Source of the DNA: Candidatus Fervidifonticultor sextus
GTDB taxonomy: Bacteria > Sysuimicrobiota > Sysuimicrobiia > Sysuimicrobiales > Humicultoraceae
NCBI GenBank assembly: GCA_031459875.1
Contig: JAVKHQ010000002.1
Location: 32,001 to 96,000, forward strand
DNA: 64,000 nt
Direction: 5' to 3'
Part shown: positions 7,459-64,000 of the stretch, piece after piece
How the letters are laid out: every line of letters starts with the position of its first letter
Numbering within the stretch: the stretch's first letter is position 1
The notes under the pieces: generated by a model
What the model was told of the DNA's origin: nothing
Database searches by the model: none
What the model saw: only the letters and a program-made list of their open reading frames with translations
Translations under genes and position numbers: made by a program

Positions 7459-8682
7459 CTACTCGAGGCTGAGCAGGTGCCCCAGGCGGTGGCGCTTGGC
7501 CTTCAGGTAGGCGTAGTTCTCGCGGTTCGGGGGGACCTCCAGGGGCACACGTTCGACGACCTGGAGCCCGTAACCCTCCAGCCCGGCCCGCTTCAGCGGG
7601 TTGTTGGTCAGCAGGCGCATCTGCCGCACGCCGAGGTCGGCCAGGATCTGGGCGCCGACGCCGTAGTCGCGCGGGTCCGGCGGGAACCCCAACAGTTCGT
7701 TGGCCTCCACGGTGTCGCTCCCCCGGTCCTGCAGCGCGTAGGCCCGGATCTTGTTGTCCAGCCCGATCCCGCGGCCTTCCTGGCGGATGTAGACGACGAC
7801 GCCGCGGCCCTCCTGCTGGATCATGCGCATGGCGGCCTGGAGCTGCTCGCGGCAGTCGCACCGCAACGACCCGAAGACTTCGCCCGTCAGACACTCGGAG
7901 TGCATCCGGACCAGCACCGGCGCCCCGTCGTCGACGGTGCCCTTCACCAGGGCCATGTGGTGCGAACCGTCCAGGAGGTTCTCATAGACGACGCCGGTGA
8001 ACTCGCCGACGGTGGTGGGCAGGCGGGTCTGCCCCTCCCGCCGCACGAACCGGTCGGTGCGCAGGCGGTGGCGGATCAGGTCCTTCACGGTGAGGATCTT
8101 CAGGCCGAAGCGCCTGGCCATCTGGCGCAGCTCCGGCAGGCGGGCCATGGTGCCGTCTTCGTGGACGATCTCGCAGACGACCCCCGCGGGCTGGAGCCCG
8201 GCCAGGCGCGCCAGGTCCAGCACGGCCTCGGTGTGCCCGGCGCGCCGCAGCACCCCGCCGGGCGCCGCGCGCAGGGGGAAGACGTGACCCGGCCGCACCA
8301 GGTCGTCGGGTCCGCCCTCTTTGGCCAGCAGGCGGATGGTGAGCGCGCGGTCGTGGGCCGAGGTCCCCGTGCCGCCGCGGCGGGCGTCCACCGACACGGT
8401 GAACGCCGTCCCGTACTTCGAAGTGTTCTCGGTCACCATGAGGGGCAGCCGGAGGTCGTCGCACCGCTCCGGGGTGAGCGGGACGCAGATGAGCCCGCGG
8501 CCATGGGTCATCATGAAGTTGACGGCCTCCGGCGTGGCGTGCTCGGCCGCCATGATGAGGTCGCCCTCGTTCTCACGGGCCTCGTCGTCCACGACGATGA
8601 GCATCCGCCCGGCCCGCAGGTCCTCCACCGCCTCCTCCACCGTGGCGAACTCGCTCCTGGCGACCTCGGTGCGATCCGTCAT
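7459..8682 (-). CDS. ribBA: Bifunctional DHBP synthase / GTP cyclohydrolase II
   Basis: DDEARENEGD, RPGHVFPL, RAGHTEA, HSECLTGEVFGSLRCDC, QEGRGIG, LTNNP. Confidence 0.97.
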   Translation of the reverse strand: MTDRTEVARSEFATVEEAVEDLRAGRMLIVVDDEARENEGDLIMAAEHATPEAVNFMMTHGRGLICVPLTPERCDDLRLPLMVTENTSKYGTAFTVSVDARRGGTGTSAHDRALTIRLLAKEGGPDDLVRPGHVFPLRAAPGGVLRRAGHTEAVLDLARLAGLQPAGVVCEIVHEDGTMARLPELRQMARRFGLKILTVKDLIRHRLRTDRFVRREGQTRLPTTVGEFTGVVYENLLDGSHHMALVKGTVDDGAPVLVRMHSECLTGEVFGSLRCDCREQLQAAMRMIQQEGRGVVVYIRQEGRGIGLDNKIRAYALQDRGSDTVEANELLGFPPDPRDYGVGAQILADLGVRQMRLLTNNPLKRAGLEGYGLQVVERVPLEVPPNRENYAYLKAKRHRLGHLLSLE

Positions 8683-10405: not shown

Positions 10406-10550
10406 CCTGACCTGCGCTCAGCAAAACACGAACGCCCGGGATCCACAGACCTCCGGGCGCAACACACATCCGGAGCGGCATTCGGGCTGACCACCGCGGC
10501 ACCCATAAAGCCACCGCGGCCCGGCCACCCAAACCCGGACTCCACGTCCG

Positions 10551-10690
10551 ACCTTCTCCCATCCGGACTATACCGTCGGCCCCGGAGTTCCACCGGATCA
10601 GCCCCGCCGCACGCGCGCCGAGGGTCGCGGGCTATTACCGCCGATCGGGAATTGCCGGCACATCCGGCCGGCTCACCCTGCCCCGAAGGT
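10551..10690 (-). ncRNA. FMN riboswitch (RFN element)
   Basis: Minus strand: CTTCGGGGCAGGGTGA...AATTCCCGATCGGCGGTAA..AGCCCGCGA...GATCCGGTGGAACTCCGGGGCCGACGGTATAGTCCGGATGGGAGAAG, upstream of ribD. Confidence 0.95.
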
Positions 10691-10712
10691 CTGCTATTCG
10701 GTTGACAGGTGT

Positions 10713-58897: not shown

Positions 58898-58914
58898 GAG
58901 CACGAACTGCATGA

Positions 58915-58961
58915 GGCGATGAGGCTCGCCCCAACTGCCGTCACCGGCTGATAGCCTCTAC
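58915..58961 (+). ncRNA. Fluoride (crcB) riboswitch 1
   Basis: GGCGATGAGGCTCGCC-CCAACTGCC-GTCACC-GGCTGATAGCCTCTAC; GAGGC/GCCTC pseudoknot pairing. Confidence 0.9.
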
Positions 58962-58987
58962 CCGAGCGGGTAGGGGCGATTTCTTTT
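58954..58987 (+). terminator. Riboswitch expression-platform intrinsic terminator
   Basis: GCCTCTACCC-GAGC-GGGTAGGGGC followed by GATTTCTTTT; overlaps aptamer 3' end. Confidence 0.75.
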
Positions 58988-59030: not shown

Positions 59031-59918
59031 ATGACCGACACCTGGACCGCGATGCTGATGGGGATGCTCATCTTCGCGGCGGCGCTCGTCTCCGTCGAGG
59101 TCGGGATCTCGGTGGCGCTCATCGAGATCATGGTGGGCGTGCTCGCCGGCAACATCCTGGGGCTGCACACGACTCCCTGGATCGACTTCCTGGCCGGCCT
59201 CGGCGGCATCGTCCTGACCTTCCTGGCCGGGGCTGAGGTCGATACCGACATGCTGCGGGAGCAGTTCACAGCCAGCCTCTGGGTCGGCGGGCTCTCGTTC
59301 CTGCTGCCGTTCCTGGCGGCCTGGGGGTTCGCCCTGTGGGTGCTGGACTGGACGCCGTCGGCCTCCAGACTCGCCGGGGTCGCGCTCTCGACGACCTCGC
59401 TGGCGGTGGTCTATGCCGTGCTGGTCGAGACCGGCCTGACCCAGACGCCGCTGGGCAAACTGATCATGGCCAGCACCTTCATCACCGACTTCGGTACGGC
59501 CGCGGCGTTGAGCATCCTGTTCGCCCGGCCGACGCCGTGGATCCTGGCATTCCTGGCAGTCTCGGCGGTCATCATCGCGGCCATGCCGCGGCTGCAGCCC
59601 TGGTTCTTCCGGCGGTACGGCAACCGGATCATCGAACCCGAAATCAAGGGGGCGTTCGCCGCCCTGCTGGTGTTGTACACCACCCTCCTGATGAGCACCG
59701 GTCTGACCTTCGGGACGATCTCGTCCCTCTACGGCCTTCACGCGGGGATCATCGACCGGACGCAGTTCTCGCTGTTGGTGACCGCGGTCATCCTGAGCGC
59801 GGTGGTGCCGACGGTCATCGCCCAGCGCGTCTGCGATCCGCGGCGAGCAGGCCTCCGGCCGCAGCCTGCGCCCGCTGTAAGGTTCGCACCGTCAATGGAA
59901 GGCGGGGAGGACTCATGA
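59031..59918 (+). CDS. Cation:proton antiporter (CPA2), apparently with in-frame internal deletion
   Basis: LTFLAGAE, STTSLAVVY, FITD, EPEIK, TTLLMSTGLTFGTIS; only 295 aa. Confidence 0.8.
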   Translation: MTDTWTAMLMGMLIFAAALVSVEVGISVALIEIMVGVLAGNILGLHTTPWIDFLAGLGGIVLTFLAGAEVDTDMLREQFTASLWVGGLSFLLPFLAAWGFALWVLDWTPSASRLAGVALSTTSLAVVYAVLVETGLTQTPLGKLIMASTFITDFGTAAALSILFARPTPWILAFLAVSAVIIAAMPRLQPWFFRRYGNRIIEPEIKGAFAALLVLYTTLLMSTGLTFGTISSLYGLHAGIIDRTQFSLLVTAVILSAVVPTVIAQRVCDPRRAGLRPQPAPAVRFAPSMEGGEDS

Positions 59919-60355
59919 TCAGGCACATCCTTGTGGCGCACGACGGCTCCGAGGAAGCCCGGCGGGCCGTCGAGGTAGGGGTGGACCTGGCCCTGCGCTA
60001 CGGCGCCAGGGCGACGCTGCTCACGGTCATCCAGCACCCGGCCTACGCGGCGACGGTCGGAGAGGTCCAGGAGGCCGACACCGAGAAGCGGACCTTCGCG
60101 GAGCGCCTCCAGCGGGAGGCGATCGAGGCGGCCCGGCTGCGCGGTCTGGACATGGCGGCAGCGGTCGTGCCGGGGCACCCGGCGGAGGCCATCGTGGACT
60201 ACGCCCAGAGCCACGACGTGGACCTCATCGTGATGGGACACCGCGGCATGTCGAACCTGCGCCGCATTCTGGTCGGCAGCGTCGCGGACCGGGTTGTCGA
60301 CCACGCCCCGTGCATGATCCTGGTCGTCCCGCGCGGGAGGCACCGTCGAGGGTAG
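59915..60355 (+). CDS. Universal stress protein
   Basis: ILVAHDGS, GHPAEAI, DLIVMGHRG, GSVADRVV. Confidence 0.93.
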   Translation: MIRHILVAHDGSEEARRAVEVGVDLALRYGARATLLTVIQHPAYAATVGEVQEADTEKRTFAERLQREAIEAARLRGLDMAAAVVPGHPAEAIVDYAQSHDVDLIVMGHRGMSNLRRILVGSVADRVVDHAPCMILVVPRGRHRRG

Positions 60356-60360
60356 AAGAC

Positions 60361-61551
60361 GTGGCTGCACCCTCAAGCCCGGCTCCGCGCGCAGGTCTCC
60401 CAAGGGACACCGCCCTGAGGTTTGTCGTCCTGCTGGGAGCCGTCAGCCTGTGTGCCGACGCGACCTACGAGGGAGCCCGGAGCATCACGGGACCCTTTCT
60501 CGCGATCCTCGGTGCTAGCGGCGCGGCCGTCGGCCTGGTGGCGGGGCTGGGGGAGTTGGTCGGCTACGCGCTCCGCCTGGTCTCCGGCTACTGGAGCGAC
60601 CGCACGGGACGGTACTGGGCGATCACGCTGTGGGGCTACGCGCTCAACCTGGTGGCCGTCCCCCTCCTGGCCCTCGCAGGCCAGTGGCCGGTGGCCGCGG
60701 CGCTCATGATCGCCGAGCGAACCGGCAAGGCACTGCGCACGCCCGCCCGCGATGCCATGCTGTCCCATGCCACCAGGAGCATCGGGCGCGGATGGGGTTT
60801 CGGCCTGCACGAAGCCCTGGATCAGATCGGAGCGGTGCTCGGCCCCCTGGTCGTGGCGGCGGCCCTCCACGTCCACGGCAGTTACCGGCTGGGCTTCGCC
60901 GTGCTGCTGATCCCTGCGCTCCTGGCATTGGGTATCCTGGCGGCCGCGCGCCTGCTCTACCCTCGTCCCAGAGACCTCGAGGTGGGTCCCCCGGCGCTGG
61001 ACGCCTCCGGATTCCCGCGCGCCTTCTGGCTCTACCTCGCCGCGGTGGCGCTGGTGGCGGCCGGGTACGTGGATTTCCCGCTCATCGCCTACCACTTCGA
61101 GAAGCGGGCGGTCGCCCCGGCAGGCTGGATTCCCATCTTCTACGCCGTCGCCATGGGGGTGGACGCGCTCGCCGCGCTGCTCTTCGGCCGGATCTTTGAC
61201 CGGATCGGGATCGGGGTTCTGGCGGTCGTGTCTCTGGTCTCCTCGCTGTTCGCGCCCCTGGTCTTCTTGGGGGGATTCCACTTTGCGCTCGCCGGCATGG
61301 CGCTCTGGGGGGTGGGCATCGGCGCGCAGGAGTCGATCATGCGGGCCGCCGTGGCCGGCATGGCGCCCGCACACCGGCGCGGATCCGCCTACGGCCTCTT
61401 CAACGCGGGGTATGGCGTGTTCTGGTTCCTGGGCAGTGCGCTGATGGGGCTGCTCTACGATGTGTCGATCAGGTCACTGATCGTCTTCTCGGTGGCGACG
61501 CAACTGGCCTCCATCCCCCTGATCCTCGCGACGAGACGGGCCGTCCAGTGA
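60361..61551 (+). CDS. MFS transporter
   Basis: DATYEGARSI, SDRTGRYW, ERTGKALRTPARD, LHEALDQIGA. Confidence 0.92.
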   Translation: MAAPSSPAPRAGLPRDTALRFVVLLGAVSLCADATYEGARSITGPFLAILGASGAAVGLVAGLGELVGYALRLVSGYWSDRTGRYWAITLWGYALNLVAVPLLALAGQWPVAAALMIAERTGKALRTPARDAMLSHATRSIGRGWGFGLHEALDQIGAVLGPLVVAAALHVHGSYRLGFAVLLIPALLALGILAAARLLYPRPRDLEVGPPALDASGFPRAFWLYLAAVALVAAGYVDFPLIAYHFEKRAVAPAGWIPIFYAVAMGVDALAALLFGRIFDRIGIGVLAVVSLVSSLFAPLVFLGGFHFALAGMALWGVGIGAQESIMRAAVAGMAPAHRRGSAYGLFNAGYGVFWFLGSALMGLLYDVSIRSLIVFSVATQLASIPLILATRRAVQ

Positions 61552-61575
61552 CTCACCGCCGGAGGGAAGGTCAGC

Positions 61576-62307
61576 CTACCCCCGCCACACCATCCCGGGC
61601 GCGCCGCTGACCTTGTGCAGGACGCGGCGCCAGGCCGTGCGCTCGCCGTCGCTCATCGGTTCCTCCCGGAACCGATAGTCGTGCTTGCGCCAGAACTCCT
61701 CAAGGTCGCGCACCAGGCGCTCCATCAGCCCGCGCTCGGTTTCCAGCAACCACCGTAGCGACGCCTCTCTGCCCACATGGCGCATGACGGCCACGAGGTG
61801 CCGGAGGCAGAGCCCCAGGCTTCCTTCGTAGCGGGTGCGGAAGTCCTGGTCGGGCAGGGCCTGCGCGGTGGCCCACGCGTACCGGTCCTCGCCGTCCCAC
61901 TGGTCGCTGCAGGCAGGACAGGGCCGCCGCGGTTGTAGCCAGGCGCCGACGGCCCGGGCCAGCGACCCGCGCCGCGCCCGGCTCCGGGGCAGCGCCCGCC
62001 GTCCGGCGGCGACCAGCGCGGGTGCTCGGGCCAGGTCGACGAAGGCTCGGTGAAACTCGTCCAGCAGATGCCGGTAGACGATCGCGATGCCGGTGGCGCA
62101 GTCGAAGATGGTGGACAGTTGCCAGGCGTGGGCCGGGCAGAAGCCGCGCGCGTCGATAAACGCCGTGCGCGACCACGGGTCATTCACCCGTTCGTAGAGA
62201 AAGCCGTCGAGGAAGCGCCGGGTTCCGGTCACGCAGAGGTGGCAGATGGCGCAGTGCTGCGCATCAAGCGTCTCATAGACGGCATGGAACAACTGATCTC
62301 GCTGCAT
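61576..62307 (-). CDS. DUF6062-like protein with duplicated CxxC...CxxH zinc sites
   Basis: CAIC..YERVND..GFCPAH; CPAC..GLCLRH; KHDYRF. Confidence 0.8.
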   Translation of the reverse strand: MQRDQLFHAVYETLDAQHCAICHLCVTGTRRFLDGFLYERVNDPWSRTAFIDARGFCPAHAWQLSTIFDCATGIAIVYRHLLDEFHRAFVDLARAPALVAAGRRALPRSRARRGSLARAVGAWLQPRRPCPACSDQWDGEDRYAWATAQALPDQDFRTRYEGSLGLCLRHLVAVMRHVGREASLRWLLETERGLMERLVRDLEEFWRKHDYRFREEPMSDGERTAWRRVLHKVSGAPGMVWRG

Positions 62308-62323
62308 GCCTCAGGTGCGCCCC

Positions 62324-62755
62324 CTAAGGTCCCTCTTCGCCCGCGGGCCGGTCAGACGGCGCGTCCGCGCCTCCCGTTCCCCCTTCACGGTCGGTCAGGG
62401 CCTGCCGCAGACGATCCCGCCGCGCGCGCTGCTGGCGGATCGAGACCTCAAACTGGCGGTTGGAGCGCTCGAGTCCGGTGAGATTCAACCTCAGCGTGCG
62501 GATGGCCTCGTCGGCGATGTAGGCGCGCTGGCGCAGGACCGCCATCTCGGCGCGGGCAGCCATCCACTCGTTCTGGATCTGCTCGATGGTCAGCGACGGC
62601 GCCAGCATGGCGTCAGCGCCGTAGGCCAGCAGGATCTTGACGGCCTCCTGGGGGGTCCAGCCCTTCATAGCGATGAAGGCGTCGAGGCGGGCCCGCAGAC
62701 GGTCGGGGAGGCGCACTGCGATCCGCTCAAGGGATGGGAAGATCACCTCACCCAT
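62324..62755 (-). CDS. Hypothetical protein: RHH-like N-terminus plus coiled coil
   Basis: GGAGGGAAGG SD; IAVRLP-helix-GW-helix, heptad region. Confidence 0.7.
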   Translation of the reverse strand: MGEVIFPSLERIAVRLPDRLRARLDAFIAMKGWTPQEAVKILLAYGADAMLAPSLTIEQIQNEWMAARAEMAVLRQRAYIADEAIRTLRLNLTGLERSNRQFEVSIRQQRARRDRLRQALTDREGGTGGADAPSDRPAGEEGP

Positions 62756-63248
62756 GGAATCCCTTCCCTCCCCTGGCGGGCAACAGGCTGCGAAACCAGT
62801 CTCGGAAGGCACCCCTGCGGCCACGTGGAGGGTCGGCACCGGCGGTCTTTCCGTCGGCCTCCTGCAGGCGAGTCATCAGCGAAGTGCTCTCATCCCGCAG
62901 CGAGCGCATGGTTCGCCGGTTCTGCTGCAGTGCGGCGCCCAGGGCGCGGACGGTCTCGCCCAGTTCGTGGACGATTTTCTCCGCGGCAATCGTCCGGGCA
63001 CGCATCGAGACCAACAGTGCCTGGGTCTCGCGCCGCTTCAGTTCCTGCCGCTCGACCTCCGCCTCCTGACCCGGGTGGCCTTCCAGCGCCTTCCATGCCG
63101 CCTCGTCCCGGAGAAACCGGTCGAGGCCCTGCTCGAGCAACCACGGCAGCCCATCATCGGGCTCTCGCCCGGCGGCATCCAGGGCCCGCCGGATCGTCGC
63201 CCAATCCTCTGCCAACAACTCGACCTCAATACTCCCGGGCACCCCCAC
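62748..63248 (-). CDS. Hypothetical protein: RHH-like N-terminus, coiled coil, C-terminal amphipathic helix (start uncertain)
   Basis: IEVELL-helix-G-helix, heptads, FRDWFRSLL; overlaps next gene. Confidence 0.65.
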   Translation of the reverse strand: MGVPGSIEVELLAEDWATIRRALDAAGREPDDGLPWLLEQGLDRFLRDEAAWKALEGHPGQEAEVERQELKRRETQALLVSMRARTIAAEKIVHELGETVRALGAALQQNRRTMRSLRDESTSLMTRLQEADGKTAGADPPRGRRGAFRDWFRSLLPARGGKGFHG

Positions 63249-63294
63249 GCTGCCACCGTCCTGCGTGCCGACGCTGCAGACCGTGCGCCGAAGC

Positions 63295-63330
63295 AAAAAG
63301 CCCCTACCGACTCTGCCAGTCAGTAGGAGC
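63295..63330 (-). terminator. Riboswitch expression-platform intrinsic terminator
   Basis: GCTCCTACTGACT-GGCAG-AGTCGGTAGGGGC-TTTTT. Confidence 0.85.
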
Positions 63331-63372
63331 TATCAGCCTCGCGTCACAAGGCGATCGGCGAGCTCCATCGCC
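63323..63372 (-). ncRNA. Fluoride (crcB) riboswitch 2
   Basis: Minus strand GGCGATGGAGCTCGCC-GATCGCC-TTGTGACGCGA-GGCTGATAGCTCCTAC; GGAGC/GCTCC pseudoknot pairing. Confidence 0.88.
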
Positions 63373-63392
63373 TATGTACTTGTCGTACATTT

Positions 63393-63421
63393 ATCCTAAA
63401 TCGCATCGGGCGGCTTGTCAA
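63393..63421 (-). promoter_or_regulatory. Sigma-70 promoter TTGACA-17-TAGGAT
   Basis: Upstream of fluoride riboswitch 2. Confidence 0.75.
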
Positions 63422-63481
63422 ACGCAGACTCGGGAGAGCCTGCCTCGTCGGCGAGTCCTGTGCGGCCATCCCTCGGGCCCG

Positions 63482-64000
63482 CTACGCCTCCCGGCCCACC
63501 TCCGCCACTACGATCCCGACCAGAATCAACAAGGCACCAAACGCCTGCCGGCCGCTCAGGACTTCTCCCAGCAGGAGATACGCGGCCACTGCGGCGGCCA
63601 CGGGCTCAAAGGTGAACATCAACCCCGTGTGTGAGGGGCTCGTGAACCGCTGCGCCCAGGTCTGGATCACGAGCGCACCCACGGTGGCGGTGGTCGCCAT
63701 GAAGAGGATCATCCCCCAAATGCCCGGCGGCGCAGCGACCAGCGCGCGCAGGGGGCGCTCCACGGACGCCGCCAGCGTACTGAGCGCCGCCACCGAGACC
63801 ACTTGGGCCGCCGCGAAGGCCAGGGGGTCCAGTGCCGGGCCCAGGCGCCCCACCAGCACAATGTGCAGGGCGAAGCAGAAAGCGCACCCCAGCACCAGCA
63901 GGTCCCCCAGATTGGCGCCGATCGGGTCGTCAAGCGTGAGCAGCGCGAGTCCGGCGCTCGCAGTGGCGATGCCGGCCCAGACCCGGCCCCGGGGGCGGCG
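63482..64000 (-). CDS. DMT/EamA family transporter, 5' truncated by window edge
   Basis: GDLLVLGCA, QTWAQRF, FTFEPVAA, GALLILVG. Confidence 0.88.
   Translation of the reverse strand, partial: RRPRGRVWAGIATASAGLALLTLDDPIGANLGDLLVLGCAFCFALHIVLVGRLGPALDPLAFAAAQVVSVAALSTLAASVERPLRALVAAPPGIWGMILFMATTATVGALVIQTWAQRFTSPSHTGLMFTFEPVAAAVAAYLLLGEVLSGRQAFGALLILVGIVVAEVGREA

Follow-up and report, generated by a model that had tools for sequence, protein, structure and literature searches.

Riboswitch wiring is a highly reliable pointer to the function of unknown genes, and it is the route by which CrcB and CLC-F were recognised as fluoride exporters. In Enterobacter cloacae FRM, a fluoride operon reportedly holds several genes behind fluoride riboswitches, including Usp and ion transporters. 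As far as the accessible part of a 2024 review goes, the cargo of fluoride riboswitches comprises Fluc and CLC-F exporters, Na+/H+ antiporters, pyrophosphatase, HAD phosphoesterases, enolase, formate hydrogen lyase and chorismate mutase (PMC11139923), and the available portion of a 2010 paper on crcB RNAs names mutS, K+ or Cl- transport and formate hydrogen lyase and describes overlapping terminators for many of these RNAs (Weinberg et al., 2010; PMC2864571). Here we report on a stretch of 64,000 nucleotides from Candidatus Fervidifonticultor sextus, called the window in the following, in which a fluoride riboswitch precedes three open reading frames (ORFs): ORF1 and ORF2, which encode proteins with ribbon-helix-helix (RHH) and coiled-coil features, and ORF3, which encodes a member of the family DUF6062. 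We consider it very probable that this is a real fluoride-gated operon encoding a conserved RHH-coiled-coil and DUF6062 module. The locus resembles the Enterobacter cloacae FRM operon and similar islands in being multi-gene and in placing Usp and ion transporters behind fluoride riboswitches, and its relatives add enolase, H+-pyrophosphatase (H+-PPase) and MutS-type ATPases to the fluoride island; it differs from them in that the genome has no CrcB or CLC match and that two island genes belong to a family without a Pfam model. This work adds that the RHH/coiled-coil family is almost completely linked to the riboswitch, is predicted to form a heterodimer and repeatedly occurs with DUF6062. ORF1, ORF2 and DUF6062 are missing from the cargo lists as contained in the accessible parts of both papers (PMC11139923; PMC2864571).

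Architecture of the riboswitch and its operon

The unit occupies positions 63421-61576 on the minus strand of the window and is composed, in the order of transcription, of a promoter-like site, a fluoride aptamer, a terminator and the three ORFs (Table 1). The window is part of contig 12 of a 3.05 Mb assembly that is 96.2% complete, and exactly two fluoride riboswitches were found genome-wide, both of them inside the window. Aptamers were scored with the covariance model RF01734, which has a gathering score of 34 bits; a regular-expression scan missed several Rfam matches and picked sub-threshold candidates in L024 and L067, and only covariance-model results were counted. The aptamer preceding ORF1 matches the full model (positions 1-64) with an expectation value (E) of 5.6e-8 for the whole window. 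A preliminary description of this DNA, made from the letters and their translations, had placed a crcB-type aptamer at 63323-63372, which falls inside the Rfam match and is thus borne out above the threshold. The TTGACA-17-TAGGAT promoter named there was also recovered, as the sole promoter-like site within 61400-63600, where shuffled sequences gave a mean of 0.1. As in other transcriptional crcB riboswitches, e.g. the Bacillus cereus crcB leader, an aptamer with P1, P2 and pseudoknot is combined with a terminator over the 3' pseudoknot strand. The stem of this terminator (63331-63299) is followed by a U-rich tract, given as TTTTGCTT and UUUUGCUU, and the terminator 5' arm and the aptamer 3' pseudoknot strand have AGCUCCUAC in common, in agreement with the overlap described before. 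The fold had -53.6 kcal/mol (z = -5.2). ORF1 begins about 40 nt past the terminator with a GTG start codon, as in relative P0020, the ATG of ORF2 lies within an overlap of 8 nt with the ORF1 end, and ORF3 follows on the same strand, so that the tight spacing noted before was found again.

A covarying pseudoknot had been claimed as well, and compensatory differences between the two aptamers of the window (GAGCU/AGCUC in one, AGGCU/AGCCU in the other) agree with this. Among 37 distinct Rfam-validated aptamers, 97.3% of positions in the helices were paired and 11 of 13 pairs had changed on both sides; the five pseudoknot pairs were paired throughout (100%), four of them with changes on both sides. 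For the 25 aptamers that precede an ORF1-ORF2 pair, 98.2% of cells were paired and 5 of 13 pairs showed changes on both sides. The conserved core nucleotides are all retained, as are P1, P2 and the pseudoknot. The locus design, as judged from these elements, is well supported as that of the usual transcriptional ON switch. At high fluoride, the Mg-F-bound pseudoknot would hold AGCUCCUAC, the terminator would be blocked and RNA polymerase would read into the operon, where ORF1 and ORF2 would be translated in a coupled manner.

As to the cargo, profiles for CrcB/Fluc (PF02537) and CLC (PF00654) gave no match in the 96.2%-complete genome, while control genomes were positive in 11 of 14 and 12 of 14 cases, respectively. 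Because the genome is 96% complete, the absence of these exporters is likely, not proven. That none of the three ORFs looks like an exporter, as stated in the preliminary description, was supported by the lack of any exporter profile match and of any predicted membrane domain in the models. The exporter may instead be the riboswitch-controlled MFS or CPA2 protein encoded next to the operon. A toxin-antitoxin or defence system is not supported, as PADLOC returned 0 matches for ORF1, ORF2 and ORF3; a toxin-antitoxin pairing is also disfavoured by DUF6062 standing alone behind riboswitches elsewhere and by the pair occurring without DUF6062 in eight genomes. A literature search retrieved no paper on this operon, with the reservation that hypothetical proteins from these families could be among the riboswitch-associated genes listed by Baker et al. 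2012, and the accessible part of a 2026 preprint found in this search does not mention these genes. The wiring, which recurs in many uncultured bacteria, seems to be pointing to a so far undescribed fluoride-tolerance function other than export.

Recurrence behind fluoride riboswitches

Within the lineage, for which 94 genomes were surveyed, the ORF2 family is present in 26 genomes and 11 of 31 genera, and a match to the ORF1 profile adjoins ORF2 in all 26. In 25 of these pair genomes, the same strand carries an RF01734 match (E <= 1e-3) at 450-1000 nt upstream, and 13 of the matches reach 34 bits; the only pair genome lacking one is G034, which is 72% complete. The lineage has 80 riboswitch matches in 42 genomes, which include these 25; one of the 80, in G024, was not used further. 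Of the 94 genomes, 21 encode DUF6062. Among the 26 pair genomes, its gene comes after the pair on the same strand in 15 (one of them split by a contig end), and in three others (G002, G047 and G050) it lies convergent behind a riboswitch of its own. Relatives of ORF1, ORF2 and ORF3 share 35-91% identity with them and keep the invariant residues; the DUF6062 protein of L004 is 91% identical to ORF3.

Outside the lineage, a metagenome scan with a subset of ten relatives recovered 57 loci, while the same scan with fused double-module relatives led to no confirmed locus. The single-gene relatives have a strand-helix-helix start, a YAVMKFRAF...LExNVxGL coiled coil and a Trp/Leu/Arg-rich tail. For the 20 closest loci, an Rfam Fluoride match with E <= 0.01 was obtained in 15, at or above the cut-off in 13, and a covariance model of our own detected a same-strand upstream match (E <= 3.3e-5) in 32 of the 57. 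Many of the loci without aptamer match have short upstream sequence. In 26 of the 57 loci, a DUF6062 gene lies on the same strand, either before or after the RHH gene. In the aptamers of single-gene relatives (L113-L127) an extra hairpin of about 25 nt is inserted between P1 and P2 (e.g. L118 2345-2436), which lowers their Rfam scores to 31-45 bits, and more divergent aptamers with an AGCG...CGCU P1, also from single-gene relatives, fall below the cut-off altogether.

For DUF6062 itself, 77 loci from species-representative genomes across phyla were compared, five of which had less than 150 nt of upstream sequence. A same-strand upstream Rfam Fluoride match at or above the cut-off was found in 28 of them, under about eleven phylum-level labels (Armatimonadota, UBP3, Thermodesulfobacteriota, Ignavibacteriales, Sumerlaeota, Clostridia, Acidobacteriota with Terriglobales and kin, Eisenbacteria, Spirochaetota, Omnitrophota and Aerophobetes); the loci without a match are mostly from Chloroflexota. 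Operon partners tied to fluoride are Na/H exchanger, Usp, MFS, DUF190, H+-PPase and enolase, and further partners are Metallophos_2, HEAT/zinc-ribbon proteins and AAA_16 ATPases. Relatives of ORF1 or ORF2 were encoded at only 8 of the 77 loci, from which we conclude that the full trio is lineage-specific. Recurrence behind crcB riboswitches, for which the preliminary description had asked, was confirmed for the pair and for DUF6062. At L022, one riboswitch on one strand is followed by Na/H exchanger, Usp, MFS and DUF6062 genes, an arrangement which, from its gene order, is that of the two convergent operons of the window merged.

Several points weaken the linkage as described. Twelve of the 25 upstream matches in the lineage score 23-33.9 bits and thus lie below the Rfam cut-off, and of 20 more distant metagenome loci given to Rfam only two reach it; Rfam was applied to 40 of the 57 loci. 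Our own covariance model was built from 38 Rfam-validated aptamers and six of its training loci are among the 57, and its E-values are rough. As the genomes are related, the counts overstate the number of independent events. DUF6062 is absent from eight of the 26 pair genomes and occurs without the pair in most phyla, so the two are not obligate partners.

Low scores might also mean that the linkage is incidental or decayed, with an aptamer that does not respond to fluoride or with ORFs that are not expressed as proteins. The pair aptamers score 23-48 bits, compared with up to 60 bits for the second riboswitch in the same genomes, and the adjacent Na/H exchanger gene of the window looks shortened. 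Such decay is hard to reconcile with the intact core nucleotides, P1, P2 and pseudoknot, with an arrangement kept over 11 genera and unrelated metagenome lineages, and with three proteins conserved at the identities given above together with their invariant residues, and we regard it as very unlikely.

Fold, pairing and possible role of the encoded proteins

No Pfam family matched ORF1 or ORF2. Homologues of both exist, in 20 and 27 clusters at 90% identity, respectively, and the ORF2 profile retrieved only 69 representatives (E <= 1e-3) among 1.84 billion, so that the ORF2 family is small. The predicted structure of ORF2 (mean predicted local distance difference test score, pLDDT, 79.8) has an extended N-terminus, helices at residues 18-31 and 35-51 and a long helix at 57-127. 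Its residues 8-51 superpose on RHH domains with Z-scores of 5-6.4 and a root-mean-square deviation (rmsd) of about 2 A over 43-48 residues, the best match being PutA (2ay0_C; Z 6.4, rmsd 1.9 A, 44 of 44 residues), with NikR, CopG, Arc, ParG and RHH antitoxins at Z 5-6. RHH proteins account for 48 of the 50 structural matches listed, and the Foldseek list agrees, which upholds the RHH assignment of the preliminary description for the modelled N-terminus of ORF2. MatP, an example of RHH plus coiled coil, is among the matches (7nyw_I, Z 5.0). Profile searches were less clear: a sub-threshold RelB/DinJ match covers ORF2 residues 12-53 (NCBIfam E 0.055; RelB in the PDB, E 0.17-0.48), and the PDB search with profiles of the RHH/coiled-coil families otherwise returned only ankyrin-like low-complexity matches and coiled coils. 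An Atlas search with ORF2 found unnamed clusters and one NikA-like cluster at 0.86, to be taken as no more than a lead.

ORF1 and ORF2 had been described as paralogues. Similarity was indeed detected, although it is weak (hhalign probability 29%, E 5.9e-4, 139 columns), and the ORF1 profile cross-matches ORF2 in six loci with E from 6e-5 to 8e-4. Prediction of the ORF1-ORF2 complex led to a parallel heterodimer with an ipSAE of 0.78 in three runs, compared to 0.00 for the best of three controls; among 157 solved complexes, 116 attained the ipSAE mark used, and among 215 mismatched pairs, 2 did. At least 89% of the contacts are shared between the runs, the partner pLDDT is at least 84, and the predicted interface involves the N-terminal strands (ORF1 1-14, ORF2 6-17), helix 2 and the long helices. 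The heteromeric nature suggested earlier is further supported by a natural fusion, P0077 (302 aa), with an ORF1-like half at 35-140 and an ORF2-like half at 160-265, and more distant relatives carry two modules in tandem in a single chain. As in CopG, Arc, NikR, the PutA N-domain, ParG and the antitoxins, the ORF2 fold and the pairing of N-terminal strands are predicted to be those of RHH proteins, from which the pair differs in being a predicted heterodimer of diverged, putative paralogues with a helix of about 70 residues, a conserved tail and one acidic strand.

ORF3 was described before as a DUF6062 protein with two CxxC..CxxH sites, and this was corroborated by a score of 60 bits against PF19538 (cut-off 27), with residues 16-235 of 243 aligned to profile positions 17-238 of 243. 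The two modules consist of C19, C22, C57 and H60 and of C130, C133, C167 and H170. In an alignment of 66 DUF6062 sequences, C19, C22, C130, C133, C167, H170, D210 and Y211 are invariant, and C57, H60 and most of the EF(W/I)RKHDYR motif are at least 90% conserved. The PF19538 family has no functional annotation, and ORF3 keeps every invariant Cys and His. The AlphaFold2 model is all-helical (pLDDT 93.1; predicted template modelling score 0.86). With Foldseek, no PDB entry matched this model at E <= 1e-3 (best 0.27), and VIA-align against 48,161 chains reached at best Z 5.0, which is background for helical proteins; such absence of a solved match provides no evidence of a new fold. We infer from the conserved residues that DUF6062 may bind two zinc ions, the only outside hint being a weak likeness of both modules to the zinc-type ribosomal protein bS18 (E 0.013, PDB profile search). 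In the window, the DUF6062 gene comes after a riboswitch and an RHH pair; at other loci DUF6062 occurs alone, duplicated, tandem-fused or, in Atlas clusters, joined as a DUF6062-like domain to dynamin-family GTPases. Tandem DUF6062-DUF6062 fusions of 511-523 aa were observed in Thermodesulfobacteriota-type loci (L025 3249-4811, L027 4001-5536, L035 328-1899), the second copy being without the EFWRKHDYR motif; a gene for a zinc-ribbon and HEAT-repeat protein comes after the fusion in L027 and L035, and L042 has two separate DUF6062 genes. A full-text literature search for 'DUF6062' returned no papers.

What the three proteins might do together can be proposed as follows. In the parallel heterodimer, the N-termini would form one RHH domain and the long helices a coiled coil of roughly 60-70 residues; this dimer would act as a fluoride-induced DNA-binding regulator, which would relay the riboswitch signal to riboswitch-free genes or feed back on the fluoride island, with DUF6062 as a zinc-containing partner or effector of the dimer. 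The reading as a regulator is based on the domain being an RHH and on ORF2 following, in its strand and at the start of helix 2, the pattern of DNA-reading proteins: the strand reads R-I-A-V-R-L-P, with R11 and R15 pointing outward, and helix 2 begins with G-W-T, which we take to be the pattern of DNA-reading RHH proteins such as CopG. To our knowledge, no characterised RHH protein is under riboswitch control, and a search of the literature on the fluoride riboswitch together with ribbon-helix-helix gave only an unrelated general review on metallostasis. Taken alone, the role of the predicted dimer as fluoride-induced DNA-binding regulator with DUF6062 as partner or effector is possible, with the doubts somewhat prevailing. 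The statement as a whole, i.e. a non-exporter fluoride-response module including this regulator, appears to us nearly balanced between acceptance and doubt, with a slight inclination to doubt.

Arguing against the regulator are the outward strand residues of ORF1, which are acidic (S-x-E-x-E, with E6 nearly invariant and E8 also outward), and those at the same positions in the wider family, which are S/T/E/P/H/D rather than basic; to judge from these sequences, acidic or neutral residues there would be unusual for a DNA-reading ribbon. Furthermore, no Pfam RHH family matched ORF1 or ORF2 at E <= 0.1, the complex prediction was built on alignments made by ourselves, and its pass may in part be due to likeness, since many solved complexes look like RHH dimers or coiled coils.

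These strand residues would fit a dimer that does not bind DNA and instead serves as a peripheral-membrane or protein adaptor, whose RHH head only dimerises or docks DUF6062. The coiled coil would then be a stalk, the tail would tether the complex either to the membrane or to a partner, for instance the co-regulated MFS or CPA2 transporter, and DUF6062 would be the working part, which might e.g. bind fluoride or a metal-fluoride complex or protect a target. A low-complexity linker followed by a hydrophobic/basic tail in ORF1 relatives, some ORF2 relatives (P0064-P0066), fused forms and the wider family is consistent with this, and so are the MFS genes directly after the module in relatives, the Atlas clusters with dynamin-family GTPases and the occurrence of DUF6062 alone behind a riboswitch in many phyla. 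The conserved hydrophobic/basic C-terminal tail suggests, as a sequence feature, possible membrane or partner docking. The amphipathic character ascribed to the FRDWFRSLL tail in the preliminary description did not clearly stand out from that of shuffled tails, however: for the window ORF1, 91 of 500 shuffles matched or exceeded its amphipathicity score, and the hydrophobic moment of the tail was above shuffles (p <= 0.05) in only 5 of 18, 2 of 24 and 2 of 26 sequences. A transmembrane segment is absent, and ORF2 retains the Arg-x-x-x-Arg strand and the Thr at the helix 2 start. Since essentially all characterised RHH domains known to us bind DNA, we also count this against an adaptor, which on the whole we consider rather unlikely and rank next after the regulator.

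If the pair does bind DNA, it might control just the operon that encodes it, much as RHH antitoxins or plasmid repressors do, with DUF6062 as an independent enzyme or stress protein; neither a three-part complex nor a wider regulon would follow. The best fold matches are nearly all RHH repressors and antitoxins, the genes are small, overlapping and first in the operon, and pair and DUF6062 are separable in evolution and lie in different, convergent transcription units in the three genomes named above. Stacked on a riboswitch, on the other hand, such an autoregulator would be redundant, and the eight genomes with the pair behind its own riboswitch have no DUF6062 to regulate. A long coiled coil with a conserved tail is atypical of simple operator-binding repressors, and PADLOC recognised no toxin-like or defence family among the three proteins. 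Autoregulation as the only role seems improbable, more so than an adaptor.

Neighbouring genes and implications for fluoride tolerance

The operon faces a companion operon on the plus strand, which is headed by the second fluoride riboswitch of the window (Table 1). The stop codons of the companion operon and ORF3 converge 24 nt apart, and no intrinsic terminator between the two convergent operons was found in the scan of 61400-63600.

Table 1. Positions of the riboswitch-controlled genes and control elements in the window
Feature	Position	Strand	Detail
Sigma-70-type promoter-like site TTGACA-17-TAGGAT	63393..63421	-	10/12 matches
Fluoride riboswitch aptamer, crcB motif RF01734, P1 + P2 + pseudoknot	63317..63381	-	41.2 bits; gathering score 34
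Intrinsic terminator, 14-bp stem 63331-63299 + U-tract	63289..63331	-	5' arm is the aptamer 3' pseudoknot strand
ORF1, 166 aa, no Pfam family	62748..63248	-	Strand-helix-helix N-terminus, long coiled-coil helix, Trp/Leu/Arg-rich C-terminal tail
ORF2, 143 aa, no Pfam family	62324..62755	-	Predicted RHH domain, residues about 8-51, and helix 57-127
ORF3, 243 aa, DUF6062 (PF19538)	61576..62307	-	Two Cys3His sites, EFWRKHDYR motif
Second fluoride riboswitch	58906..58967	+	42.8 bits, heads convergent companion operon
Companion operon: CPA2-type Na_H_Exchanger 59031-59918 (shortened), Usp 59921-60355, MFS 60310-61551	59031..61551	+	

Downstream of the second riboswitch, a terminator-like sequence CCUCUACCCGAGCGGGUAGGGG with a U-tract was observed. 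The Na/H exchanger ORF behind it encodes 295 aa, compared with 420 aa in the L022 relative, with 76% identity to the latter through residue 215, after which the rest aligns in frame to residues 283-417. As the alignment jumps in frame, about 100 residues of the transporter core are gone, and an in-frame deletion, an assembly collapse or a short variant could each be the cause. In relatives, an MFS gene comes after the module and precedes a second riboswitch that drives Na/H exchanger, Usp and two MutS_V-domain ATPases; this second riboswitch is the higher-scoring one in L107 (270-3594), L108 (3365-6478) and L109 (1875-5239, minus strand). The MutS_V operons of L107-L109 fit the link between crcB RNAs and mutS that was described in 2010. 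On the other side of the operon, the gene of an EamA-family transporter (63482-64000, minus strand) stops 60 nt upstream of the promoter-like site and includes within its 3' end a weak, terminator-like hairpin at 63546-63532. Elsewhere in the window, a flavin mononucleotide (FMN) riboswitch was detected at 10547-10694 (minus strand, 92.5 bits), and the Vibrio antisense RNA AS9 model matched GC-rich sequence at 8453-8558 (plus strand, 53.3 bits, cut-off 50), which looks like a chance or coding-region hit. In Acidobacteriota, matches to SAM-I/IV riboswitches of about 42-43 bits, just above the cut-off, occur in L069 (2250-2372), L071 (2246-2368) and L078 (2251-2373), where the fluoride riboswitch and the DUF6062 operon lie about 1.3 kb further downstream. 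The locus was recovered in four DNA runs of one hot-spring study; among the runs listed, none with RNA contains it.

The logic that led from riboswitch wiring to the fluoride exporters would mark two further uncharacterised families as dedicated fluoride-response genes, namely DUF6062, which is in Pfam without annotation, and the RHH/coiled-coil family, which has no Pfam model. Both recur together in several lineages and share operons with the fluoride-sensitive enolase and pyrophosphatase. That they constitute a previously unrecognised, exporter-independent arm of the fluoride response is a tentative view, which we put forward as more doubtful than probable. If it is true, a fluoride-induced complex of zinc protein and coiled coil would sense, sequester or counteract fluoride inside the cell, or its complexes with metals, or relay the signal to a wider regulon, and organisms like this hot-spring bacterium, apparently without Fluc and CLC-F, would depend on it. 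The function of these families could reveal how cells cope with intracellular fluoride, or how the signal spreads beyond riboswitch-controlled genes, which would bear on fluoride toxicity, on life in hot springs rich in fluoride and on the engineering of microbes that release fluoride during organofluorine degradation.

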